Origin: a bacterium
GTDB taxonomy: Bacteria; Patescibacteriota; Minisyncoccia; UBA6257; 02-FULL-45-10c
Direction: 5' to 3'
Assembly (NCBI GenBank): GCA_021786945.1
Contig: JAJYMK010000003.1
Coordinates: forward strand, 457,471-521,470
Length of the DNA: 64,000 nucleotides
A program made the translations under genes and the position numbers. Below, piece after piece: positions 16,255 through 57,469 of the stretch. Every line of letters begins with the position of its first letter. Positions within the stretch are counted from its first letter, which is position 1. The notes under the pieces are model-generated. The model was given only the letters and a program-made list of their open reading frames with translations, ran no database searches and was not told the DNA's origin.

Positions 16255-16717
16255 CTACCTGTTGAAGGTGGGGACTCTTTCCATCCTTTCGATGAGGTCT
16301 TTGTCGCTATGGTAAGAGCAGTAATTCTTGCCCATCACCACGTCGCCGAGTATCTCGCCGATCCGCAACTGCGGATTGTGCTTCAGCGCATGCTTCAGCA
16401 TTTTTGCGAACTTGGCGTTCTGGTCGACAGTCCTGATCTTGTTCTGCATGTCCTTCGGAAAACCGAAGGCCAGCATCAGATCGCCCACGCTCGGCTGCCC
16501 CTCCCCGTGAAACGCTCTCAAGTCCATAGCGAACTCGAGATCGGTTTTGTACGAGAAGCAGCCCTCCCCGCTCATGATCCAAAAGATCAGGTTTGCCCAA
16601 GAGGTCTTGGGATTGCGGCAAGCCGCATTCTCAAACGCCTCGGCAAACCGGGCCGAATCCTTGTTCGACCTGTTGCACTTCTGCTCGCCGTAGTAGTTCC
16701 TTCTCTGATTTTTCATA
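16255..16717 (-). CDS. hypothetical protein (154 aa) encoded by a visibly G+C-rich segment
   Basis: Start set at ATG (MKNQRRNYYGEQK) preceded by AGGAGG; the ORF track's longer 16255-16824 version lacks an SD. Several overlapping ORFs on other frames/strands reflect high GC. No family recognised. Confidence 0.5.
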
Positions 16718-16924
16718 TCGTTCCTCCTGGAATTTTCACTGAAACATGCCGAAAACCAATATGCCGACACCCATAACAATCCGGATGGCGGTATCCAATA
16801 ACTCATTAAGCTTATCCGAAGCAATATTCATAAATAAATCCCCTTTTATTAAATTTTCAATGTAATTTTACTATATTAACACAAAAATTGATTTTTGACA
16901 AGTACTAATAAAAATACCCAATTA

Positions 16925-30076: not shown

Positions 30077-30688
30077 TTATTTTGACTCTCCTTCAAAATT
30101 TTGAGCCACTTCGCCAAATTTCATGGTCACGGGATCGAGTTTAAGCCAAATACTCTTACCCAATGAAGGTTGTATTGAAAATGGCTCTCCCGGCATGCGA
30201 ACAGCATAATTAACAACAATAACATTTTGTCTATTGGTTCCCAAAGCTGTTTTTCCGCTATCTATTTCTGTGGTCTGGGGAGCTATTCTATCTCCAAGGA
30301 AAAAACCTTCAGAGCCGGCATATCCGTTAACGGTATTCAAGGCCGCAACTACATAATAAAACGTTCCCGTTCCTCCAGTTTGCTGCGTCAATAAAAATGC
30401 AATATCCTCTCTTCCGTCACCATTAAAATCAGCTCTTACTTCATTGCCAAAATACCTTGTAATTATTTTGGAGGCCGAGCCAGGAGCCGCCGGAATTTCC
30501 GATAAACCATTTTTTAAAGTAACTTTAGATCCATCGATCGTATAAGTTGCATTCAAATAACTAAATCCTGTTTCAGAATTCGAGTTAGTACTATTTTTTG
30601 CAAAATAGAATTTATAAACGGCGAAACCTAAGATAGCCAGCAAAATAATACCCAATACAATTCCCAAAACAGTAGGCATTTTCTTCAT
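30077..30688 (-). CDS. membrane-anchored hypothetical protein (203 aa)
   Basis: N-terminal TM helix then soluble domain; no family recognised. Confidence 0.5.
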   Translation of the reverse strand: MKKMPTVLGIVLGIILLAILGFAVYKFYFAKNSTNSNSETGFSYLNATYTIDGSKVTLKNGLSEIPAAPGSASKIITRYFGNEVRADFNGDGREDIAFLLTQQTGGTGTFYYVVAALNTVNGYAGSEGFFLGDRIAPQTTEIDSGKTALGTNRQNVIVVNYAVRMPGEPFSIQPSLGKSIWLKLDPVTMKFGEVAQNFEGESK

Positions 30689-30715
30689 AAGATTATTATA
30701 TCTTAAAAAGAAATT

Positions 30716-31042
30716 TTACAGAATAAATCTGACGATAAAAACCGATAATGTTATAAGAGCCAGGGATAAAATCGTATAAACAAATACCAAAATGCTTTCT
30801 TTTTTTAATCCCTCCAAATAAAAATAAACGGATCTTCCGAAAACCAGCGTTCCGGTAACCGCAGCGGAAATAACCAATAACATCAGCGTCATCACCGGCT
30901 GCCACAAACTAAAATTTTTACCTATCCATTTATCCGTATTAAACAAAACCCAAACAATTCCTGAGGTATAAACAAACACCCCGATCGACTGGACCAATGC
31001 ATACAATACTAATTTTGAATTTTTCATATATACAAAAACCAA
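30716..31042 (-). CDS. hypothetical small membrane protein
   Basis: 3 predicted TM helices; overlapping shorter ORF 30696-30905 rejected. Confidence 0.4.
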   Translation of the reverse strand: MVFVYMKNSKLVLYALVQSIGVFVYTSGIVWVLFNTDKWIGKNFSLWQPVMTLMLLVISAAVTGTLVFGRSVYFYLEGLKKESILVFVYTILSLALITLSVFIVRFIL

Positions 31043-31116
31043 AAAGAAAACCCCAAAGTTTCTTTTAATTAAAATTAGTAATCAATCCAAGCTAAAATTT
31101 ATTTTTATCAAAAAAT

Positions 31117-31578
31117 CTATTGCATCTTTTCCCATCCAATCACCGGGTGAATCTCCCACCAATTATGCGGCTCATCAAATCTAGAAATACCCCAAATTCT
31201 TATTTTTTCTCCAACGGCTGGCAAATTCAAAGATTTTATCTCTGGTATAAATTCGGTAACTAGCGCGGAACCAATATTGCTTTTAACAACAACATGGGCA
31301 TCGCCGTCCGGTTCGGCTGTAACTATTTCGACAATACCCTCAACCGCAACTTTTGTTTTTTTACTTCCATTTTCAATAAAATCAACAATATCTACATCGT
31401 GATAAAGCAGATCTTGCTCTATTCCAACCCCCTTATTCAGAAAAAAAACTGAAGGGTCGGACAAAAAACTTGGAAATGCGGCCCTTGGATTTAAAGTCTT
31501 ATTTCTTGCATATATACCGATGCCAATACCCGCTACAAATACAATAATAACTATAAAAATATAAACTATTTTTTTCAT
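31117..31578 (-). CDS. membrane-anchored hypothetical protein (153 aa)
   Basis: N-terminal TM helix; no family recognised. Confidence 0.5.
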   Translation of the reverse strand: MKKIVYIFIVIIVFVAGIGIGIYARNKTLNPRAAFPSFLSDPSVFFLNKGVGIEQDLLYHDVDIVDFIENGSKKTKVAVEGIVEIVTAEPDGDAHVVVKSNIGSALVTEFIPEIKSLNLPAVGEKIRIWGISRFDEPHNWWEIHPVIGWEKMQ

Positions 31579-31630
31579 AGTTTAATTATAAGATATTTAC
31601 AAAAAAATTTTATAATATATAAACGAATAA

Positions 31631-31704
31631 CGGGGTGCCTAACGGGAATCGAACCCGTGTAACCGCTTCCACAGAGCGGGGCTCTACCATTGAGCTATAG
31701 GCAC
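31631..31704 (-). tRNA. tRNA-His (anticodon GTG)
   Basis: Cloverleaf on minus strand: extra 5' G(-1) pairing with discriminator C, anticodon loop CUGUGGA, T-arm GGGTTCGATTCCC. Confidence 0.85.
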
Positions 31705-31767
31705 CATATCAAGCAACCTGCCAATTGCTGTTTTAAATAATACCAAAAAAAATCATTTTTACAAATA

Positions 31768-31795
31768 AAAAGCCCCCGTTGTTACAGGGGCTTTG
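31768..31795 (-). terminator. intrinsic terminator for 31809-32354
   Basis: hairpin AAAGCCCC-TGTAACAACG-GGGGCTTT followed by T-run on minus strand. Confidence 0.65.
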
Positions 31796-31808
31796 GCCAA
31801 CAAGCTAT

Positions 31809-32354
31809 TTAAAGCGGGTTGGCGGAGGAAAACAGCTCGAACGCCTTTTTAGTATCCAGGCGGCCGGAACCCAGAAAAAGATCCTTAAAGAAAGCGCCCA
31901 GCCTCTTCTGTTCGGCGTTGCTGAAATAAGCCAACGACGAAAACTTCAGAGGAAAGAGCTTGGATTTTTCTTCCAGGACTCTGTACTTACACTCGTCTTC
32001 GTTGCAGCAGGTAAAACGGTGGCCATAAGAACAGCCGCCATAGCTGTAACGGACGGAAAACATCTCCACTTTCTTGCGCTCTCCGTCATACGAGCAGTAA
32101 GGACACTCTTCGGAACTCTTAATGAACTCACCGGCCCTCATCACCCAAGCCAGGTGCAGATGCAACCTGTTGGGCAAAGAACCGGAAGCCATATTTTTAT
32201 CCGCTATATTCTTCAGATAGACCAGATATCCGTGATCCGCAAACATCAGCGCCTCTACGGACTGGCCGGCTTTTTTTCCGGACTTAAACATATACGGCCC
32301 GGACAACTCATAAGGAAAATTGCTTCCTTTTATCACTACGTTTACCAGAGCCAT
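31809..32354 (-). CDS. hypothetical Cys-rich protein (181 aa) on a G+C-rich segment
   Basis: GGAGG SD 5 nt upstream of ATG; Cys cluster ECPYCSYDGE...GGCSYGHRFTCCNEDEC suggests a zinc-binding module; opposite-strand ORF 31779-32402 rejected. Confidence 0.55.
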   Translation of the reverse strand: MALVNVVIKGSNFPYELSGPYMFKSGKKAGQSVEALMFADHGYLVYLKNIADKNMASGSLPNRLHLHLAWVMRAGEFIKSSEECPYCSYDGERKKVEMFSVRYSYGGCSYGHRFTCCNEDECKYRVLEEKSKLFPLKFSSLAYFSNAEQKRLGAFFKDLFLGSGRLDTKKAFELFSSANPL

Positions 32355-32493
32355 TTAAGGCCTCCTCGATTCCTAGATTTTCAAACAACAATGAAAATAT
32401 AATGATATAAAAATGCCTAAAAGTCAATGGTAATTTTTAAAAAATAAAAACGCCTTGCGGCGAATCTATAGTGTTTACCACGAGCTTTTCGAA

Positions 32494-32568
32494 TGGTGCC
32501 TGGGGGGTGAATTGAACACCCGACGCCAGCCTCTTCAGGGCTGCGCTCTACCACTGAGCTACCCAGGC
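32494..32568 (-). tRNA. tRNA-Phe (anticodon GAA)
   Basis: Cloverleaf: GCCTGGG/CCCAGGC acceptor, anticodon loop CUGAAGA, T-arm GGGTGTTCAATTCACCC, encoded CCA. Confidence 0.85.
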
Positions 32569-32668
32569 ATTATTTAGTTTTACTGCTTAATAATAACAAA
32601 ATAAAAATATTTTTCAATAATAAATAAAAAAGCGGCTGATTAACAGCCGCTTTATTTTTTAAAAACAT

Positions 32669-33049
32669 TTAGGATTTGTTAGGTTTTTTCAATCCGTGCG
32701 CTTTTACGTAAGCGTCGAATTTCTTGCGCCTTTCTATTTCGGCATCGCGATCTTCGATGTCTTGTTTTCGGCAGTACAGCCCGCCGCCAAGATGGGTCCA
32801 GCCATCCCGTTCATTCGGATCTTTTTTATCTTTCTGATATTCCCCTAAAAATTCCTTCCGGATGCTCCGAATAGCCAAACGGCCTAAGACCGAAAGAAAA
32901 AGCCCGACGCACAGAAGAGCGGAAGCTAAATAAGGATGAAGCAGTGACACTCCTGTAAATACAGAAATTACGATGCTTATAGCCCCGACAGCCATCATCA
33001 AAAGGCCATAAATGAAAGCCTTTCTAGCTCTTTCAAATGCAGTAAACAT
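32669..33049 (-). CDS. small 2-TM membrane protein with highly charged C-terminal tail (G+C-rich segment)
   Basis: Start set at ATG (MFTAFERARKAF) with GGAGG SD; the ORF track's longer version begins at an upstream TTG. Two hydrophobic helices then a K/D/E/R-rich tail. Confidence 0.5.
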   Translation of the reverse strand: MFTAFERARKAFIYGLLMMAVGAISIVISVFTGVSLLHPYLASALLCVGLFLSVLGRLAIRSIRKEFLGEYQKDKKDPNERDGWTHLGGGLYCRKQDIEDRDAEIERRKKFDAYVKAHGLKKPNKS

Positions 33050-33158
33050 TTTTATCCTCCTAATAATTTTCAATATAAGACTAACAACGTTCTAAACAAA
33101 ACCTACCACTAGTAGATAAAAAGTCAACCGAAAACAAATATCGGATAATATATAAATG

Positions 33159-33230
33159 TGTCCCCGCAAGGAATCGAACCTTGATATCCAGCTTAGAAGG
33201 CTAGTGTTCTATCCATTGAACTACGGGGAC
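33159..33230 (-). tRNA. tRNA-Arg (anticodon TCT)
   Basis: Cloverleaf: GTCCCCG/CGGGGAC acceptor, D-stem GTTC/GAAC, anticodon loop CUUCUAA, T-arm CAAGGTTCGATTCCTTG. Confidence 0.8.
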
Positions 33231-33353
33231 AGAGTATGTATAGAAGATAATAATCCAAAAATGAATCTATTTCAACAATAATTACACAGAATAAAAAAAT
33301 GAAACTGTTGAAAATACACTAAAAATAGAATAAACTATTTCTAGTTTAAAAAA

Positions 33354-33424
33354 CGGAGTGTCGTATAACGGCAGTATGCATGCTTTGGGAGCATGCGGCC
33401 TGGGTTCAATTCCCAGCACTCCGA
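33354..33424 (+). tRNA. tRNA-Pro (anticodon TGG)
   Basis: Acceptor CGGAGTG/CACTCCG, anticodon stem-loop CATGC-UUUGGGA-GCATG (identical loop to E. coli tRNA-Pro UGG), T-arm CTGGGTTCAATTCCCAG; short D-loop. Confidence 0.7.
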
Positions 33425-33466
33425 CAAAAATTTTTCTTATAAAAAATAAAACCGGTTTTCATGGGC

Positions 33467-33494
33467 TTGATTTTTTTTAGCGATATGCTATTAT
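33467..33494 (+). promoter_or_regulatory. promoter TTGATT-16-TATTAT for cassette 1
   Basis: Homologous to cassette 2 promoter (shared CTTGAYTTT...ATGCTAWTATA). Confidence 0.5.
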
Positions 33495-33566
33495 AGCAAC
33501 TCGCTGTTTAACAACTCCGACTGCGCCCTAAGCGCTGCCGGAAATATAAAAGGACGAGGAGAAAGC

Positions 33567-33920
33567 ATGAACAAAACCACGAAAACTGCGGTACTGGTGA
33601 TAGACACGGACACGACGATCAACGAGGACATCCTCAACGTGATCAGGACCAACCACGGCACGAACACGCGCATCAAGACGGTGCGCTCGGCCAAAGCGTT
33701 CGCGACCCCCTACGGGTTCACGAACCTGGTCCAGCAGTACACCACCGGGCGCAACACTACCGTGTACGCCCTCAAGACCGATCTGAAGGGTCCGGCCCTG
33801 AAGGCGGCGATGCAGACGGGCATCAAGTTCAACCTCCTGTTCAGGAACAGGAGCAGGAACTGGAACTCGGTCAGCGCCCGCCAGATCACGGCCTCCAGCC
33901 CGCGGCCGAAGTATAGCTAA
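33567..33920 (+). CDS. small protein, cassette paralog A (117 aa), unknown family
   Basis: AGGAG SD; shares HGTNTRI(K/R)xVRS, GFTxL(V/I)QQ, T(T/A)TVYA blocks with 34169-34495; G+C-rich; antisense ORFs rejected. Confidence 0.6.
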   Translation: MNKTTKTAVLVIDTDTTINEDILNVIRTNHGTNTRIKTVRSAKAFATPYGFTNLVQQYTTGRNTTVYALKTDLKGPALKAAMQTGIKFNLLFRNRSRNWNSVSARQITASSPRPKYS

Positions 33921-33928
33921 GCCGCGCA

Positions 33929-34072
33929 AGCAGCCGCAGAGCAGAGAGAGACAATGCGGAAAAGCCTATGAAGCCCGACAAAATAGTGGCTAAGTAGGTC
34001 GGCTACGGAGCCGAAGTGTAGTAAGCCCCGCATCATCCAACAAAACACGGATGGTGCGGGGCCTTTTTTTAT
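33929..34072 (+). repeat. conserved 144-nt 3' element (copy 1) ending in long-stem intrinsic terminator
   Basis: 142/144 identical to 34571-34714; internal hairpins GCCCGAC...GTCGGC and CGGCT-ACGG-AGCCG; terminator stem CCCCGCATCATCC/GGATGGTGCGGGG + T7. Confidence 0.75.
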
Positions 34073-34083
34073 TTTTAAATAAC

Positions 34084-34111
34084 TTGACTTTTATAAAAAC
34101 TATGCTAATAT
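34084..34111 (+). promoter_or_regulatory. promoter TTGACT-16-TAATAT for cassette 2
   Basis: Homologous to cassette 1 promoter. Confidence 0.5.
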
Positions 34112-34168
34112 ATTTTCTACCGTTTTAAAAAACGGTTCGGTACTTTAAAAAACAGGAGAAGTTATTTA

Positions 34169-34495
34169 ATGAACAACAAAAAGACTGTGGTTCTGGCGAC
34201 GAAGAGCGGCAACGTGGACAATGCGGTAATACGCATCATCAAGTCCAAACACGGGACTAACACGAGAATACGCTTCGTGCGGTCCAGCAGGGTTTTCAAC
34301 ACGGACTCGGGTTTCACTACCCTGATCCAGCAGAATCGCAATACCGCTACGGTGTACGCGATCCGCGAAGAACTGCCCCGCAACTCCTTCGAAACCGCGG
34401 TGAAAACCGGCCTGGCTTTCTGCATCCTGAACAAGGACGCAAACAAGGGCTGGAACATCTTCCACCGCCGCGAAAATAACGGCCTCGCCCAGTAA
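34169..34495 (+). CDS. small protein, cassette paralog B (108 aa), unknown family
   Basis: CAGGAGAAG SD; paralog of 33567-33920 (by-eye under half of positions identical); G+C-rich. Confidence 0.6.
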   Translation: MNNKKTVVLATKSGNVDNAVIRIIKSKHGTNTRIRFVRSSRVFNTDSGFTTLIQQNRNTATVYAIREELPRNSFETAVKTGLAFCILNKDANKGWNIFHRRENNGLAQ

Positions 34496-34570
34496 GTAAA
34501 CCAGGCCGATAGCGGCACGCAGCGTAGTTGCAGCGAAAGAAAAAGCAGCAAAAACGCAGTGAAAGAGAAA

Positions 34571-34714
34571 AGCAGCCGCAGAGCAGAGAGAGACAATGCG
34601 GAAAAGCCTATGAAGCCCGACAAAATAGTGGCTAAGTAGGTCGGCTACGGAGCCGCAGTGTAGTACGCCCCGCATCATCCAACAAAACACGGATGGTGCG
34701 GGGCCTTTTTTTAT
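34571..34714 (+). repeat. conserved 144-nt 3' element (copy 2) ending in long-stem intrinsic terminator
   Basis: Differs from copy 1 at two positions only (ccgAagtg/ccgCagtg; gtaAgcc/gtaCgcc). Confidence 0.75.
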
Positions 34715-34755
34715 CCCACGTATAAGTTTTATATGAGGGATTTATTTATTTCAGA

Positions 34756-34783
34756 TTGACAAAATCAAAAAAATAAGTATAAT
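34756..34783 (+). promoter_or_regulatory. consensus promoter TTGACA-16-TATAAT
   Basis: Exact -35 and -10 hexamers upstream of 34869-35123. Confidence 0.6.
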
Positions 34784-34868
34784 TATTACCATATTTGTTG
34801 CTCTGCACCAAAGTAATAGCCACTTAACAAATAAATAAAAGCTGTTTGTAATCAAGGAGAAAAGTATC

Positions 34869-35123
34869 ATGTCTAAATTAGCTGTTATCGTCGGTACGAG
34901 CGAAGTAACCCGCGATCCGCTCGAACTTCTTATCGAAAAAGAGGAAAGGGTTAAAAGAGACAAAAAGGACGAAGAAAGCGATAATAAAGGAGAAGTCAAA
35001 GTTTCTGCGCCCTGCCTCGTATTAATTCCCAACTCTTTCAAAGAGGCCTGCGAAGATCCGTGCGAGATTCTGATAGCTCTGTCGGATCCCGAGGAAGTTC
35101 TGCGCCAGGCGTTAATAAACTAA
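34869..35123 (+). CDS. small acidic hypothetical protein (84 aa)
   Basis: AAGGAGAAAAG SD, consensus promoter upstream, terminator at 35179-35204; no family recognised. Confidence 0.5.
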   Translation: MSKLAVIVGTSEVTRDPLELLIEKEERVKRDKKDEESDNKGEVKVSAPCLVLIPNSFKEACEDPCEILIALSDPEEVLRQALIN

Positions 35124-35178
35124 ACCAGCGCAATTCAGCCAATGACATCGTGGACTTAAAGGAGGTCCGCAAAAAACA

Positions 35179-35204
35179 AAAGCCCCGCTATAAAAGCGGG
35201 GCTT
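35179..35204. terminator. bidirectional intrinsic terminator
   Basis: hairpin AAAGCCCCGC-TATAAAA-GCGGGGCTTT between convergent genes. Confidence 0.75.
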
Positions 35205-35210
35205 TAACTT

Positions 35211-35849
35211 TTAATTTATCGCACTATCAAACTCTCTAAGTTTCTGATTAAACGAGTCATTTAAAGAATTTATATCATCGCCTTCCCTGTTCATATTGTT
35301 TATAAATATCTGAACGTTATCACCGTCATAATTTTTATCACCCTCGAATTTCATCTTTAGTACCTTCAACAAACCCTCAAAATAAGCATTGTAATTCAAT
35401 AGATGGTTTATTAAAGAAACTTCCTGAGAAACAGCATCAAAAGCCAAACTCTTAGCCGTTGCTGGTTTTATACCCTGCACCGCCTGGGCCATTTTCCCCA
35501 ATTTATCGGAAAGTTCCAAGGCTTTATTTTTTGCATTCTCTATATTTTTAGTTTCTTCTTCAACTAGATTCAATGCGCTGGAAAATCTTCCGGCTTTATC
35601 CTCTTCGGATATTTTATCCAAATTTTTAACTGAAGCATCTAAAATAACAACTAAATCTGAAGCCAAAACAGAGCTCTGACTTCTGGCGTCCTTGAAATTA
35701 TCGGGAACAAAAGATCTTGAAGCGGAAAAATAAAATACTATTCCGGCCAAAACCAGGGCCAAAATAATCCACATTATTACCAATCCGGAAACCGAGGATC
35801 TTGTTTTCATAATAGATTTTATTATAATAGAATAGTTGAAATAATACAA
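35211..35849 (-). CDS. membrane-anchored hypothetical protein
   Basis: N-terminal TM helix (…GLVIMWIILALVLAGIVFYF), coiled-coil-like soluble part; start uncertain (alternative ATG at 35810). Confidence 0.5.
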   Translation of the reverse strand: MYYFNYSIIIKSIMKTRSSVSGLVIMWIILALVLAGIVFYFSASRSFVPDNFKDARSQSSVLASDLVVILDASVKNLDKISEEDKAGRFSSALNLVEEETKNIENAKNKALELSDKLGKMAQAVQGIKPATAKSLAFDAVSQEVSLINHLLNYNAYFEGLLKVLKMKFEGDKNYDGDNVQIFINNMNREGDDINSLNDSFNQKLREFDSAIN

Positions 35850-35882
35850 AACCTATGCCTACCATTTAGAAATAGGTTTTAA

Positions 35883-35953
35883 GCGGGTATCGTATACCGG
35901 TATTACCTCAGCTTTCCAAGCTGATGAAAGGGGTTCGACTCCCCTTACCCGCT
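35883..35953 (+). tRNA. tRNA-Gly (anticodon TCC)
   Basis: Acceptor GCGGGTA/TACCCGC, anticodon stem-loop TCAGC-UUUCCAA-GCTGA, T-arm AGGGGTTCGACTCCCCT, discriminator U. Confidence 0.85.
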
Positions 35954-36048
35954 CAAACAACCGCCTCAATACAATAAATACCTTATAATATAAAGTAAGG
36001 ATAGAGACCTGTTTTTAAGAAACTAAAAGCCCGCTTATTCGTTTTATT

Positions 36049-36600
36049 ATGTTAGAGAACGAGAAAAAATACATAGAAGATGCTAAAGCCGGAAATCAAG
36101 AGGCTTTCGGAATTATTTACAATCACTATATTGCTCAAATATATAGATTTGTTTTGTTTAAGGTTTCCGGAAAGCAAATAGCCCAAGATCTTACCCATGA
36201 AACGTTCTTGAGTGCCTGGCAAAATATAAAAAATTATAAACATAAAGAATTTCCGATATCCAGCTGGCTTTACCAGATTGCCAGAAACAAAGTTATAGAT
36301 TATTACAGGACAAATAAGAAAAATATTTCCATAGATACAGAGGAATTTGATGAAAGCTCATTGGGATTTGAAGAACAGAAAAACCTAGATGGGCCGATGA
36401 ACTTAGAAAAAATAAAATCTCTGATAACCTACCTGAAGCCGGAATATCAAGATGTAATAATTATGAGATATGTAGAAGACTTGGATCATGGAGAAATAGC
36501 CCATGCTATGAAAAAAAGCGAAGGGGCGGTAAGGCTTCTACAACATAGAGCAATAAAAAATTTAAAGGAATTATATGAAAAATATAGAGGAAATAATTAG
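36049..36600 (+). CDS. RNA polymerase sigma-70 factor, ECF subfamily
   Basis: Region 2 (…IYRFVLFKVSGKQIAQDLTHETFLSAWQN…) and region 4 HTH (…DHGEIAHAMKKSEGAVRLLQHRAIKNLK); 183 aa. Confidence 0.85.
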   Translation: MLENEKKYIEDAKAGNQEAFGIIYNHYIAQIYRFVLFKVSGKQIAQDLTHETFLSAWQNIKNYKHKEFPISSWLYQIARNKVIDYYRTNKKNISIDTEEFDESSLGFEEQKNLDGPMNLEKIKSLITYLKPEYQDVIIMRYVEDLDHGEIAHAMKKSEGAVRLLQHRAIKNLKELYEKYRGNN

Positions 36601-53861: not shown

Positions 53862-53905
53862 ATCCCCCTGTTCATAACAGAACAAGGGGATGTTTTTTTT
53901 TACTT
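53862..53905. terminator. bidirectional intrinsic terminator
   Basis: ATCCCCCTGTTC-ATAACAG-AACAAGGGGAT with flanking A5 and T9. Confidence 0.7.
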
Positions 53906-54532
53906 CCTGAAAGGAAGCACGCCATCGATAAGGCCGTAAGCTTTCGCTTCTTCGGCGGACATATAGAGGTTCCTCTCCATGTCCTTCTGGACCTTTTCGA
54001 AGGTCTGGCCGCAATGCTTAGCGATGATCTCGGTAAGCACCTTCTTGTTGAGCTGCATTTCCTTGGCCTCGATTTCGATGTCCGTTGCCTGACCGGAAAT
54101 GCCGCCGCCCATTATCAGGGGCTGGTGGATCATGATACGGGAGTTTGGCAGCGCGAAACGCTTACCTTTTGTTCCCGACGCCAGGATCACCGCACCGAAG
54201 CTCATCGCCATCCCCATACACACGGTAGAGACAGGGCTCTTGATGAACTGCATAGCATCGTAAACAGCCAAGCCGGCCGTTACCATGCCGCCGGGCGAAT
54301 TTATGTAAAGGCAGATATCTTTGGAATCATCTTGTGAATCCAAGTACAGCATCTGCGCGATCAGTGAATTCGCTGACTCGGTAGTGAACTCGCCTTCGTA
54401 ACCACCCACAAAGATAATGCGGTCGGTTAAAAGACGGGAGTAGATATCGTAAGCCCTTTCCACGCCAGCCACCTTCCCGATGACAGTCGGGATAACGCTG
54501 ACGGCTTTTATCACGCCACGTTCCTTTTTCAT
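53900..54532 (-). CDS. clpP: ATP-dependent Clp protease proteolytic subunit (G+C-rich paralog)
   Basis: [11 protein letters not shown]…[15 protein letters not shown], catalytic Ser in GMAMSFG, His in MIHQP; strong AAGGAGGAAGG SD; coding sequence visibly G+C-richer than the adjacent clpP. Confidence 0.85.
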
Positions 54533-54619
54533 AATCCTTCCTCCTTACCAAGAATTTCTGAATCGAACTTAATTTTCAAGCTCCTAATTTAAACCTAAAT
54601 TAAAAATAAAACTCCGTCA

Positions 54620-54652
54620 ATAATAAAAGACCTCTGTTATATAGAGGTCTTT
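54620..54652 (-). terminator. intrinsic terminator between the two clpP genes
   Basis: GAAAGACCTCT-ATATAACA-GAGGTCTTT + TATT on minus strand. Confidence 0.6.
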
Positions 54653-54660
54653 CAAAAAAA

Positions 54661-55263
54661 TTATTTTTTAACTTTTATTATCTCGTCCACTAAACCATAT
54701 TCTTTTGCTTCCTGCGGACTAAGCCAATAATCTCTGTCTGTATCTTTTTGTATTTTACTCAAAGATTGACCCGTGTGTTTAGCTAGAATCTGATTAAGCT
54801 GTTCTCTCATCCTCAAAATATGCTTTGCACTGATTTCGATCTCGGTAGCTTGGCCGCCGATTCCCTCGCTCATCACCTGATGGATCAAAACTTCGGAATT
54901 CGGAAGTATAAATCTTTTTCCTTTAGCTCCCGCGGCCAGAAGTACGGCGCCCATAGAAGCCGATATTCCTACACCAATGGTAGAAACATCACACTTCACA
55001 TGCTGCATAGTATCATAAATAGCCAATCCCGCACTCACGGAACCGCCCGGAGAATTTATATAAAGCTTAATGTCTTTTTTGGGATCCTCGTGTTCCAAAA
55101 AAAGCAGCTGGGCAATAATTGTATTCGCCATACCATCACTTACAGGACCGCCCAAGAATATTATCCTCTCCTTTAAAAGGCGAGAATAAATATCGTAAGC
55201 CCTCTCACCCATAGAACTTTTTTCAATAACTGTCGGGATTAAATATTCATTTTTTTCATTCAT
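54661..55263 (-). CDS. clpP: ATP-dependent Clp protease proteolytic subunit (genome-typical A+T-rich paralog)
   Basis: [28 protein letters not shown], Ser in GISASMG, His in LIHQV; 200 aa. Confidence 0.9.
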
Positions 55264-55542: not shown

Positions 55543-56127
55543 ATGGAAAGCAAAATAAAAGTTGTTCTGGAAGGCATCGGCCGCGGCCTCCTCATGCATA
55601 AATTTTGCATCGAGGCTTACGAAAACCAGGTAAAGAAGAACAAAGCCAAGCCTTCGCCTGAAGAAGAGGCGGAAAGAGTGGCTTATCGCCTGGCGCCCGA
55701 AAAAGAATCCGAAAAAGGACAGCTCTGCCTTCCGGCCGAGCACTTCATAGGATCTCTTATCTCGGCGGGAGCTGGCTTCAAGCAAGTCGGCGGCGGCAAG
55801 AAAACCTACAAAAGCGTACTCACCGGCAATCTGGATATCTGCCCAGAAAACGTGGGCCTCACGGACGCGAAAGGCACTCCGCTGAAGGACTACAAAATAG
55901 ACAGTCGCCCGGTATGTATCAGGGCAACTAAAGGCCGGATTATCCGCCACCGCCCGCTTATAGAAGTAGGCTGGCGCGCGGAATTCACATTAGTACTCTC
56001 GGACGATTCGGTTCCGCTAGAGGTAATCAAGGCGGTTCTCGAAGAAGCCGGTAAAAGCAAATGCGTCGGCGATTTTCGCCCGCGCTTCGGCCAGTTCCGA
56101 GTTATTTCCGTGGACAAAATTCAGTAA
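55543..56127 (+). CDS. hypothetical protein (194 aa) on a G+C-rich segment
   Basis: AGGAGG SD 7 nt upstream of ATG; no family recognised; followed by (NNGGT)n array and terminator. Confidence 0.55.
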   Translation: MESKIKVVLEGIGRGLLMHKFCIEAYENQVKKNKAKPSPEEEAERVAYRLAPEKESEKGQLCLPAEHFIGSLISAGAGFKQVGGGKKTYKSVLTGNLDICPENVGLTDAKGTPLKDYKIDSRPVCIRATKGRIIRHRPLIEVGWRAEFTLVLSDDSVPLEVIKAVLEEAGKSKCVGDFRPRFGQFRVISVDKIQ

Positions 56128-56329: not shown

Positions 56330-57469
56330 CTATTTAGAGCTTTCCAAAAAATCAAATACTTTTTTGTTTTTCACTATATCATAACTGTAACTATAGATTC
56401 TTTGTGGATCTATTTTTTGTGCATGCTCTGGGCGCAAAGTCGCCAAAAACTTATTGCTTTCCATTTCCACTTCTTCTGAAGTCGGCTCTATTTTTTCATC
56501 TTTGGCTATTTTATACAAAACCAAATTGGAAACAACGCTTTTTTCGGCTTCGGGTCGCAATTTCTTCCTGACTTCCTCCTCTTTAAAATCTTTTTTGAAA
56601 TACATCTTATATTCTTCCAGCATTCCGGACAGAGTTTTTTCTATCATCACTTCAGGAATCTCAATTTTTGAATCTTTTCCAATTTCTTCAAGTGCTTTTA
56701 TTCTCAACCTCTCGGATTCCTTCAATTCCTTTTCTTTTTTAATACCGTCTTTTATGCTGTTTTTCAATTCTTCCAAGGTTTTAAAATTTCCGAGCTCTTT
56801 TACCAACTCGTCATTCAACTCTGGTAATTGTCTCTCAAAAACGGAAGCTAATTTTACTCCGTCAAATTCCTCTCCTTCTTTATGACCAACTATTTTTTCA
56901 TCCAATCCTTTTTCTAAGTGTGAATGACCCAAAATAAACTGATCCGGCTTTCCTTTGTATTCTATATTCACCACATCTCCCATTTTTGCGGGATTTGCAG
57001 ATCTTACTATTTTTGCCCTGGAATTTAAAATCCAATTTATAGCCTCCTGAACCTCGTCATCGCCTGCGGTTATCTCTCTTTTTTCCTCAAAAATCTTTTT
57101 GGCGATTTTTTTATAATCTCCAAGTTTTACTTCCGGAAAAACAACCAAATCTATCTTGAAAATAATTCCTTCTGGTTTTTCTTCTAGGTCAATTTTAGGC
57201 TGATCAACAATTTCCCATTCATTTTCCTGGGTTATTTCTTTCAATATCTCCCTTATAGCTTTTGTAGCGGCTTCTCCGAAAACTTTATCCTTGTCTATAA
57301 CGGCATCGGCCATTTGTTTGGGTGCTGCGCCTTTCCTGAACCCTTTAATTTCCACATCTTTTAAAGCTTCTTGATAAACAACTTCCCAATATTTAGAAAA
57401 TTCTACTTGGGTCAGAGTAACCTCCAATTGCTTAACAGAACCCGGAAGATCTTTGTGAGTATATTTCAT
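56330..57469 (-). CDS. tig: trigger factor
   Basis: N-terminal ribosome-binding signature GFRKGAAP, central PPIase-like and C-terminal domains; 379 aa. Confidence 0.9.
   Translation of the reverse strand: MKYTHKDLPGSVKQLEVTLTQVEFSKYWEVVYQEALKDVEIKGFRKGAAPKQMADAVIDKDKVFGEAATKAIREILKEITQENEWEIVDQPKIDLEEKPEGIIFKIDLVVFPEVKLGDYKKIAKKIFEEKREITAGDDEVQEAINWILNSRAKIVRSANPAKMGDVVNIEYKGKPDQFILGHSHLEKGLDEKIVGHKEGEEFDGVKLASVFERQLPELNDELVKELGNFKTLEELKNSIKDGIKKEKELKESERLRIKALEEIGKDSKIEIPEVMIEKTLSGMLEEYKMYFKKDFKEEEVRKKLRPEAEKSVVSNLVLYKIAKDEKIEPTSEEVEMESNKFLATLRPEHAQKIDPQRIYSYSYDIVKNKKVFDFLESSK

Follow-up and report, generated by a model that had tools for sequence, protein, structure and literature searches.

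A tRNA array in a Patescibacteria genome and its interleaved small genes: probable long-standing residents rather than recent captures

Do G+C-rich small genes that lie between tRNA genes mark a site at which foreign DNA has been captured? The question is raised by an array in a 64,000-nucleotide stretch of a Patescibacteria contig (hereafter the window), in which genes for four tRNAs are interleaved with a gene for a 181-aa protein with a Cys cluster (CPYC...CSYGHRFTCCNEDEC; the Cys gene) and a gene for a 126-aa protein with two predicted membrane spans (the 2-TM gene). Both were described in the first-pass annotation as G+C-rich orphans, and the array as a hotspot that had repeatedly captured foreign cargo. 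The reading that we consider likely is that the array is native, that the Cys gene is a vertically inherited resident, that the 2-TM gene was born within the clade, that the raised GC3 is maintained, and that no recent capture took place. Under this reading, the array would belong to a Paceibacteria-class Patescibacteria genome, with tRNA-Pro on one strand and tRNA-Arg, tRNA-Phe, and tRNA-His on the other, and the Cys gene would be a conserved member of it, inherited within the clade under strong purifying selection. The 2-TM gene would have arisen once in the clade ancestor, evolved quickly, and disappeared from at least one lineage. The raised GC3 of the Cys gene would be kept by selection on synonymous sites instead of reflecting a recent import, and the array would sit in a turnover zone with a breakpoint at the 3' end of tRNA-His that has been used in relatives.

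Table 1. Positions of tRNA genes, protein genes, and predicted signals in and next to the array (window coordinates).
Feature	Position	Strand	Basis or description
tRNA-His(GTG)	31632-31704	-	ARAGORN + Rfam
Promoter-like site, tRNA-His	31737-31764	-	TTGTAA-16-TATTAT with TG; conserved in L010, L011, L013
Intrinsic-terminator-like hairpin 3' of Cys gene	31769-31794	-	11 bp stem, 6 GC pairs, T-run
181-aa Cys gene (four-Cys predicted zinc-ribbon protein)	31809-32354	-	ORF
Promoter-like site, Cys gene	32399-32427	-	TTGACT-17-CATTAT
tRNA-Phe(GAA), without intron in the window	32494-32568	-	ARAGORN + Rfam
Promoter-like site, tRNA-Phe	32590-32617	-	TTGAAA-16-TATTAT with TG
Bidirectional terminator-like hairpin 3' of 2-TM gene	32629-32653	.	
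126-aa 2-TM gene	32669-33049	-	ORF; ATG preceded by AGGAGG
tRNA-Arg(TCT)	33158-33230	-	ARAGORN + Rfam
Promoter-like site, tRNA-Arg	33247-33275	-	TTGAAA-17-TATTAT
Promoter-like site, tRNA-Pro	33308-33336	+	divergent from tRNA-Arg promoter-like site
tRNA-Pro(TGG)	33354-33425	+	ARAGORN + Rfam
tRNA-Gly(TCC), next tRNA past tRNA-Pro	35883-35954		

ARAGORN and Rfam both recovered the four tRNA genes that had been reported within 1.8 kb (Table 1), with canonical cloverleafs and with RF00005 scores of 58.7-71.3 bits, all above the gathering score of 29. The 181-aa ORF and its Cys cluster were likewise present between tRNA-His and tRNA-Phe. Each of the two protein genes has a Shine-Dalgarno sequence, a promoter-like site, and a terminator of its own, and every tRNA and small gene of the array would form a separate transcription unit. 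Mixed-specificity tRNAs packed into a few kilobases, in an order that is kept among related genomes, are also a feature of other bacterial tRNA arrays. In contrast to these, the tRNAs of the window have individual promoter-like sites, a single polycistronic operon is not indicated, terminated protein genes lie between the tRNAs, and gene content turns over rapidly around the anchor tRNAs. The core CATTGACTTTT of the Cys-gene promoter-like site was also found upstream of the Cys gene in L004 and L001 (L-numbers denote loci from related metagenomic genomes that were compared with the window). An inverted repeat between the 5' arm of tRNA-His and the Cys promoter region (I5) was rejected as chance because only this -35 core is conserved in these two loci. 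A diversity-generating-retroelement-like (DGR-like) reading of a 145-nt repeat was also rejected, as the copies are identical except at two positions and a reverse transcriptase was not seen.

The Cys gene occupied the same site in all syntenic relatives, and in at least six related metagenomic genomes it lay between tRNA-Phe and tRNA-His. Protein identity to the window copy was 97% in L010/L011, 91-92% in L013, 82% in L012, 77% in L004, 61% in L001, and 53% in L017. The order Pro/Arg/(2-TM)/Phe/Cys/His was found in L004, L005, L009, L010-L013, L001-L003, and L017. As far as these comparative loci show, the array and the Cys gene are ancestral to the clade. Divergence of the Cys protein tracked that of the flanking genes; between the window and L013, identity was 91% for the Cys protein, 87% for the sigma factor, and 74% for the anti-sigma-like protein. 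The dN/dS of the Cys gene was 0.05-0.08, compared to 0.03-0.04 for the neighboring sigma factor, which points to strong purifying selection. Together with the dN/dS of 0.24-0.53 for the 2-TM gene, these values show that both genes are truly coding. Since it is the minus-strand frame that is under selection, an antisense ORF on the plus strand (31779-32402) was dismissed. Within one and the same genome pair, the dS of the Cys gene (0.74) was lower than that of the sigma factor (1.86); recombination between lineages could explain this equally well as codon selection. The first-pass annotation, which treated the Cys gene as captured cargo, had itself named the same genes at the same position with similar composition in related genomes as a sign of ancestral content, and both the position and a similar GC3 elevation were found in the relatives.

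Base composition had been the other ground for suspecting foreign origin. Compared to the 64 ORFs of the window (GC 0.382, sd 0.064; GC3 0.374, sd 0.124), the Cys gene had a GC of 0.485 (z 1.6) and a GC3 of 0.60 (z 1.9, rank 5), and the 2-TM gene had a GC of 0.446 (z 1.0) and a GC3 of 0.43 (z 0.5). The label "G+C-rich" therefore holds moderately for the former but does not hold for the latter, which is no compositional outlier in view of its low z-scores. The raised G+C of the Cys gene sits mainly at synonymous sites. The GC3 elevation was common to the clade orthologs and was absent from distant members of the family, and the same codon pattern was observed in the ClpP gene, which is native in its tig-clpP-clpP context. 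Because it is shared by the orthologs and by native ClpP, the GC3 excess would be a maintained feature and not a mark of recent foreign origin; selection on synonymous sites is its most likely cause. The main value of the analysis is a correction, in that a G+C-rich small gene beside a tRNA in this low-GC Patescibacteria genome is no evidence of horizontal capture.

Kyte-Doolittle hydropathy agreed with the earlier description of a 126-aa protein with two membrane spans and a charged tail, encoded between tRNA-Phe and tRNA-Arg. The hydrophobic spans cover residues ~11-34 and ~40-62, and 47% of the 64 tail residues are K, R, D, or E; the predicted topology is N-in/C-in. The motif GWxHLGGGLYCRKQDIEDRDAEI is conserved. 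The term orphan was nearly right for this gene, with five known homologs that are all restricted to the same clade, and the dN/dS given above marks it as fast-evolving. It was located in the Arg-Phe slot of L010, L013, L004, and L009, behind a conserved upstream region that was 76-79% identical at the nucleotide level in L013, L004, and L009 despite the diverged coding sequence. It was missing from L012 and L017, and L001 carried an HNH gene in that slot. The claim that the 2-TM gene is captured cargo thus retains the two absences in its favor, but is largely contradicted by the shared position in the relatives. The window protein shared 52% identity with its counterpart in L009 but 32% with that in L013, although L009 is the more distant of the two; this is attributed to unequal retention of an internal repeat, which L004 has in full, and allelic exchange may be an alternative.

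The holin-like topology suggested for the 2-TM protein is real but generic, and its membership in the holins was unsupported. Two hydrophobic spans followed by a highly charged C-terminal tail are shared with class II holins, although this trait is not holin-specific. The Pfam family Phage_holin_3_6 reached 15.5 bits against the protein, below its cut-off of 28.4. No match was obtained in PHROGs or by tblastn in 50,697 phage records. The ORFs scanned within and near the array included no endolysin or phage genes, and the immediate neighbors of the 2-TM gene are tRNA-Arg and tRNA-Phe. Unlike class II holins, the 2-TM gene is chromosomal with an upstream region conserved in four relatives, and its product bears a C-terminal Cys/acidic motif that is weakly DUF7659-like in four of the five homologs.

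Both flanks of the window were colinear with L013 and L029, and differences in content were confined to ~26.4-36 kb; the array is inside this roughly 10-kb zone of high gene turnover. Several genes between the tRNAs come and go by insertion or deletion in relatives, including a CPBP-like gene that lies between the Cys gene and tRNA-His in L013 and after the Cys gene in L004. L029, whose sigma factor is 61% identical, lacks the 4.3-kb block entirely, with tRNA-His adjoining the sigma gene; at some stage the lineage must therefore have gained or relocated the block. An inverted repeat (I17, 31621-31635/36030-36044) was rejected as a boundary because it fails to bracket the segment missing in L029. 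One explanation of this difference is a single ancient acquisition. A GC-richer donor would have supplied the clade ancestor with a block comprising the Cys gene, the cassette genes, perhaps the 2-TM gene, and relocated tRNAs; placed between tRNA-His and sigma, the block would then have been inherited vertically, its amelioration slowed by selection. Such an event would fit the L029 arrangement, where nothing lies between tRNA-His and sigma and synteny holds on both sides, the restriction of the GC3 elevation to the clade's copies of the Cys family, and the high GC3 of the neighboring small genes c117, c108, and p84. However, the block holds four tRNA genes (Phe, Arg, Pro, and Gly) that on general grounds, given the small size of the genome, are likely native and indispensable isoacceptors, which suggests rearrangement and not import, and the Cys family occurs widely in chromosomes of Patescibacteria. 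Furthermore, the synonymous sites of the flanking genes are saturated (dS ~1.9), so that an unselected donor signature should have decayed, and native ClpP has the same codon pattern. We regard an ancient acquisition as unlikely, although it fares best among the alternatives to a native array with long-standing residents.

The Cys protein belongs to a sizeable family, contrary to the term orphan. A profile search returned 220 representatives of 50%-identity clusters at E<=1e-3 and 134 at E<=1e-10, so that the family comprises at least 220 such clusters. The few named members are all from Patescibacteria (Moraniibacteriota among them), and the family is uncurated, with no Pfam or NCBIfam model. 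A word-indexed search with alignment A2 added just three further members, a scan of GTDB species representatives with the Cys alignment gave no matches, and literature searches for prior descriptions found nothing relevant. Among 120 sequences, C84 and C117 were invariant and C87 and C122 were conserved in at least 90%, so that both Cys knuckles of a zinc ribbon are retained family-wide. One member had a sub-threshold match to Zn_ribbon_16, and the weak PDB sequence matches were zinc ribbons without exception. The AF2 model built on the 120-sequence alignment reached a pLDDT of 95.4 (an earlier model on a shallow 9-sequence alignment, pLDDT 55, was discarded), and Foldseek found no fold match for it in PDB or BFVD. 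On this basis the protein is predicted to be a four-Cys zinc-ribbon protein. The conserved positions are mainly Cys ligands and an aromatic/hydrophobic core, with E34 as the sole conserved acidic residue, and the protein is therefore probably a non-enzymatic binding protein, with nucleic acid as the likely ligand. Lineage-specific protein families of unknown function occur in Patescibacteria (CPR). The Cys protein resembles them in being small, stand-alone, chromosomal, and known by name from Patescibacteria only, and differs from them in its confident predicted structure and in its anchoring in a tRNA array in one clade. With this high-confidence predicted structure and no solved or viral structural relative, the family is a candidate for curation and biochemistry.

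Functional coupling offers another explanation for the position of the Cys gene, namely that tRNA-His or the translation apparatus is the substrate or partner of its product and that selection for co-regulation keeps the two genes adjacent. In three neighborhoods that otherwise differ (Phe-Cys-His; Pro/Arg-HNH-Phe(intron)-Cys-His; and L19...tRNA-Leu-CobAT-Cys-His), tRNA-His is immediately preceded by the Cys gene on its own strand, and in L015 two tandem Cys paralogs precede tRNA-His. Distant members are solitary in varied chromosomal neighborhoods, beside DNA ligase, a DnaA fragment, dCTP deaminase, and others, and one follows rpmA (L27). On the other hand, no tRNA occurs within 5-6 kb of the distant members L022-L027, the Cys gene and tRNA-His are set apart by a strong terminator and by a promoter-like site of the tRNA's own, and L013 tolerates the CPBP-like gene between them. 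The canonical tRNA-His, with G-1 encoded at 31705, and the restriction of conserved acidic residues to E34 also argue against coupling, and for the same two reasons a Thg1-like or tRNA-His-specific enzyme was rejected. We consider coupling improbable. It is similarly doubtful that the protein represents an undescribed Patescibacteria-specific zinc-ribbon fold that partners the translation machinery, with tRNA-His or the ribosome as a conceivable binding target. If true, such a role would explain why the Cys gene stayed at tRNA-His through three rearranged neighborhoods, the distant member after rpmA, and a synonymous constraint like that of highly expressed genes.

Recent capture was examined in the window itself. 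Pfam searches of ten ORFs in the array and its surroundings (30077-36600) detected no recombinase domain, the two supposed cargo genes and their neighbors had no PHROGs match, PADLOC gave no significant match, and the Cys and 2-TM genes had no phage, plasmid, or viral (IMG/VR) relatives. The att-like duplicates of tRNA 3' ends that capture was expected to leave around the cargo were not found: a k-mer scan with tRNA segments of >=11 nt over 25-42 kb yielded only 11-12 nt chance or shared T-loop matches, and a repeat search found no direct repeat flanking either gene. The sporadic presence and absence that marks an island was not seen for the Cys gene and was mixed for the 2-TM gene. That the two genes are independent, fairly recent captures by tRNA-targeted site-specific integration is the least probable explanation: their location immediately 3' of tRNA-Phe and tRNA-Arg, as in tRNA-linked islands and prophages, the upper-tail GC3 of the Cys gene, the patchy 2-TM gene, and an integrase in a sibling strain speak for it, but the lack of an integrase among the scanned ORFs, of flanking repeats, and of phage or plasmid homologs, the fixed position of the Cys gene in every relative of 53% identity or more, with flank-like divergence and low dN/dS, and the typical composition and conserved upstream region of the 2-TM gene all stand against it. 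Repeated foreign capture is thus mostly unsupported, and what stands of the hotspot is the weaker idea that the surroundings of the array are structurally plastic. The locus is for the most part ordinary, its small genes being long-standing residents common to related genomes.

Mobile-element activity around the array was seen in relatives only. A large serine integrase of phage type (phrog_95, E 5.7e-82) lies immediately against the 3' end of tRNA-His in the sibling strain L010, and in four relatives homology to the window stops exactly at this end, as in tRNA-linked islands, which tyrosine or serine recombinases insert at the 3' ends of tRNA genes. The 3' end of tRNA-His is a real recombination and integration breakpoint in these relatives, and its activity did not deliver the Cys gene or the 2-TM gene. 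The Cys family, the integrase, and an intron described below are potentially useful by-products of the comparison, none of which alone changes current understanding; L010 documents a serine integrase of phage type at the 3' end of tRNA-His in an ultra-small bacterium. In L001, L003, and L017, the anticodon loop of tRNA-Phe holds a group I intron.

The locus is largely an ordinary native tRNA array that carries lineage-specific resident genes. Of the seven tRNAs that ARAGORN called in the window, four are packed into 1.8 kb; these four and the two genes interleaved with them, the Cys gene and the 2-TM gene, are real. The Rfam tRNA model gave 57-71 bits for each of the His, Phe, Arg, Pro, and Gly tRNAs, and the Rfam scan of 29-38 kb contained no match at gathering score beyond these five. 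Both genes are preceded by a sigma-70-like site and a strong Shine-Dalgarno sequence (GAGGAGG for the Cys gene and AGGAGG for the 2-TM gene) and followed by a G+C-rich hairpin and T-run, and a promoter-like site is separately present for each tRNA of the array. The first-pass annotation thus described the array correctly, but its interpretation, an integration hotspot that repeatedly captured foreign G+C-rich orphan genes, was supported only in part.

Features of the tRNA array and the adjoining cassette genes (window positions)
Feature	Position	Strand	Basis or remark
tRNA-His(GTG)	31632-31704	-	ARAGORN, Rfam
Cys gene, 181 aa	31809-32354	-	ORF
tRNA-Phe(GAA)	32494-32568	-	ARAGORN, Rfam; intron-less
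2-TM gene, 126 aa	32669-33049	-	ORF
tRNA-Arg(TCT)	33158-33230	-	ARAGORN, Rfam
tRNA-Pro(TGG)	33354-33425	+	ARAGORN, Rfam
Cassette gene c117	33567-33920		GC3 0.91
145-nt repeat, copy 1	33928-34072		after c117; copies 99% identical
Cassette gene c108	34169-34495		GC3 0.77
145-nt repeat, copy 2	34570-34714		after c108
tRNA-Gly(TCC)	35883-35954		ARAGORN, Rfam; next after tRNA-Pro

Related loci (L numbers, from genomes and metagenomes) were gathered by contig look-ups and a metagenome scan. Close relatives in the scan with the neighboring sigma factor were Patescibacteria MAGs only (Paceibacterota/Paceibacteria, Liptonbacteria, Wolfebacteria, and others labelled Saccharibacteria or Parcubacteria), the best species representative being 78% identical; the window itself was 100% identical to Logan contig L051 and 99.96% to ENA contig L050. 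The position of the Cys gene is held across the whole clade, which is the observation that the first-pass annotation had named as refuting its reading as a foreign capture.

Gene order in related loci
Locus	Cys identity	Order
L010/L011	97%	2-TM, Phe, Cys, His
L013 (160-kb contig)	92%	sigma, Gly, p198, p67, two c117-family genes, 311-aa membrane protein, Pro, Arg, 2-TM, Phe, Cys, 208-aa CPBP-like protein, His
L012	82%	Arg, Phe (114 bp apart, without 2-TM), Cys, His
L004/L005	77%	Pro, Arg, 145-aa 2-TM homolog, extra 85-aa gene, Phe, Cys, CPBP-like protein
L001-L003	61%	Pro, Arg, HNH (L001/L002; stretch without called gene in L003), Phe, Cys, His
L017	53%	Pro, Arg, Phe, Cys, His
L006-L008	52%	other upstream setting (L19 ... 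tRNA-Leu, Cob_adeno_trans), yet Cys then His

Smaller differences were observed within the array. ARAGORN missed tRNA-Phe(GAA) in three loci because a group I intron lies in its anticodon loop (L001:1215-1461, L003:1975-2221, and L017:661-894), as indicated by split BLAST alignment and by Rfam RF00028 (72-78 bits). A free-standing HNH ORF occupies the Arg-Phe slot just upstream of tRNA-Phe in L001 (734-1108, minus) and L002. The CPBP-like membrane protein gene (~208 aa) separates the Cys gene from tRNA-His at L013:10695-11321; at L004:8178-8741 it follows the Cys gene and is cut off by the contig end. This gene, which the window, L010, and L012 lack, is an insertion/deletion polymorphism within the array.

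Sequence divergence was calculated by the Nei-Gojobori method between the window and its relatives. The dN/dS of the Cys gene was 0.046-0.083 (against L010, L013, L012, and L004), that of the sigma factor was 0.03-0.04 (L013 and L004), and that of the 2-TM gene was 0.24-0.53 (L010, L009, L004, and L013). Amino acid identities to L013 and L004 broadly matched between the Cys protein (91 and 78%) and the sigma factor (87 and 87%), and fast-evolving neighbors such as p212 (~60%) diverge more than the Cys protein.

The window has a G+C content of 37.8%. Relative to 64 non-overlapping ORFs (GC 0.382, SD 0.064; GC3 0.374, SD 0.124), the Cys gene was a moderate outlier (GC 0.485, z 1.6; GC3 0.60, z 1.9, rank 5), the 2-TM gene was within the normal range (GC 0.446; GC3 0.43, z 0.5), and the GC3 extremes were c117 and c108. 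Another GC3-rich gene, ClpP (53900-54532, GC3 0.67), is native because it stands in a canonical tig-clpP-clpP arrangement beside aspartokinase/homoserine dehydrogenase, and its A/C/G/T composition at four-fold sites (0.08/0.36/0.28/0.28) nearly equals that of the Cys gene (0.09/0.36/0.32/0.23). Therefore, high GC3 is no sign of foreign origin here. The tig-clpP-clpP housekeeping cluster spans 53900-55263 and 56330-57469, and an unannotated 194-aa gene on the opposite strand between clpP and tig (55543-56127) has a GC3 of 0.59 and no Pfam match. The highest GC3 after the cassette genes (0.74) belongs to a 183-aa ORF beside the phosphoglucomutase gene (16255-16806, minus), also with no Pfam match.

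Tests for mobile elements at the two genes were negative: no tRNA-end duplicate of at least 13 nt was found within 25-42 kb, no direct repeats flanked either gene, and the ORFs scanned inside or beside the array had no recombinase domains. Searches of PHROGs, 50,697 phage records, and IMG/VR contigs gave no relative of either protein, and a search of 72,556 plasmids gave none of the Cys protein. The window, L010, L013, and L012 are homologous up to exactly the last base of tRNA-His, and what lies beyond it differs in each. L010, 93% identical in nucleotides to the window over 1.46 kb (31632-33087), carries beyond tRNA-His a 559-aa large serine recombinase matching phage integrases (phrog_95, E 5.7e-82), the 3' end of which overlaps the last 12 nt of tRNA-His, followed by an ORF with a weak small-terminase match. 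This segment (L010:1364-3912) probably belongs to a prophage that a sibling strain carries at tRNA-His, and the window has the empty site. In tblastx, both flanks of the window were colinear with L013 and L029, and content differed only at ~26.4-36 kb. L029 comes from a Paceibacterota MAG whose sigma factor is 61% identical; there (L029:9654-10001), tRNA-His stands ~270 bp from the sigma factor gene, and the whole 4.3-kb block of tRNAs and small genes that the window has within 31632-36049 is absent with synteny kept on both sides. The breakpoints, the integrase, and the L029 layout therefore place the array within a plastic zone and make tRNA-His a genuine integration site in the lineage. The hotspot idea holds to this extent, but the Cys and 2-TM genes are old residents despite this plasticity. 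The mobile elements in relatives are a by-product of modest interest.

The Cys gene is not an orphan, as first labelled. Although only eight full-length relatives (52-97% identity) came out of a word-indexed search of 5.8 billion proteins, 220 matches at E<=1e-3, 134 of them at E<=1e-10, were obtained when 1.84 billion 50%-cluster representatives were searched exhaustively with a HMMER profile; almost all of these are 155-195 aa long. In a 120-sequence alignment, C84 and C117 were invariant and C87, C122, E34, W70, F172, and F175 were at least 90% conserved, a pattern that is a four-Cys zinc-ribbon signature; aromatic and hydrophobic residues fill most of the other conserved positions, and just one of the conserved residues is acidic. 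From this pattern and the predicted structure, the protein is a predicted zinc-ribbon binding protein with a lineage-specific role, and its ligand is probably nucleic acid. The few source-named members belong to Moraniibacteriota or "Patescibacteria group". Genes of distant members stand singly at varied places in the chromosome, without a recurrent partner (after rpmA, or near ligA/gatCA, a DnaA fragment, or dCTP deaminase), and no tRNA was nearby at the distant loci scanned (L022-L027). An activated-sludge contig (L015:46-1249) has tandem Cys paralogs (183 and 171 aa) directly upstream of tRNA-His. This uncurated family is likewise a by-product of modest interest.

In the 2-TM protein, two hydrophobic spans precede a 64-residue tail, 47% of which is K/R/D/E, so the topology called holin-like was confirmed, but both homology and context fail to support holin membership. 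It is a predicted small inner-membrane protein with both termini cytoplasmic (positive-inside rule), and its predicted cytoplasmic part bears a conserved Cys/acidic motif with weak, sub-threshold likeness to DUF7659 in four of five homologs. The window protein is 52% identical to that of L009 versus 32% to that of L013; this incongruence could stem from differential loss of an internal repeat, because the C-terminal "GWxYLG..C" motif occurs in both its variants in the L004 protein. Conservation of the 90 bp that precede the gene, seen in L013, L004, and L009, points to a single orthologous locus rather than independent captures.

The cassette genes c117 and c108 are small paralogs (38% amino acid identity) with no family match in Pfam, PHROG, PADLOC, or NCBIfam. 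Their GC3 bias is maintained and not a mark of un-ameliorated foreign DNA, because orthologs in L013, L004, L009, and L003 keep a GC3 of 0.61-0.87. L050 lacks exactly one cassette unit (c108; window 34073-34569) with the junction inside the 145-nt repeat, which reflects either real copy-number variation via repeat recombination or assembly collapse at k=141. The repeat had no match in an Rfam scan. Its core of ~75 nt, which hardly varies among seven copies from four genomes, holds a 14-bp terminator hairpin (GCCCCGCATCATCC...GGATGGTGCGGGGC plus a T-run), in which no covariation was seen because the pairs are invariant; the ORFs adjoining the copies are only 38-56% identical.
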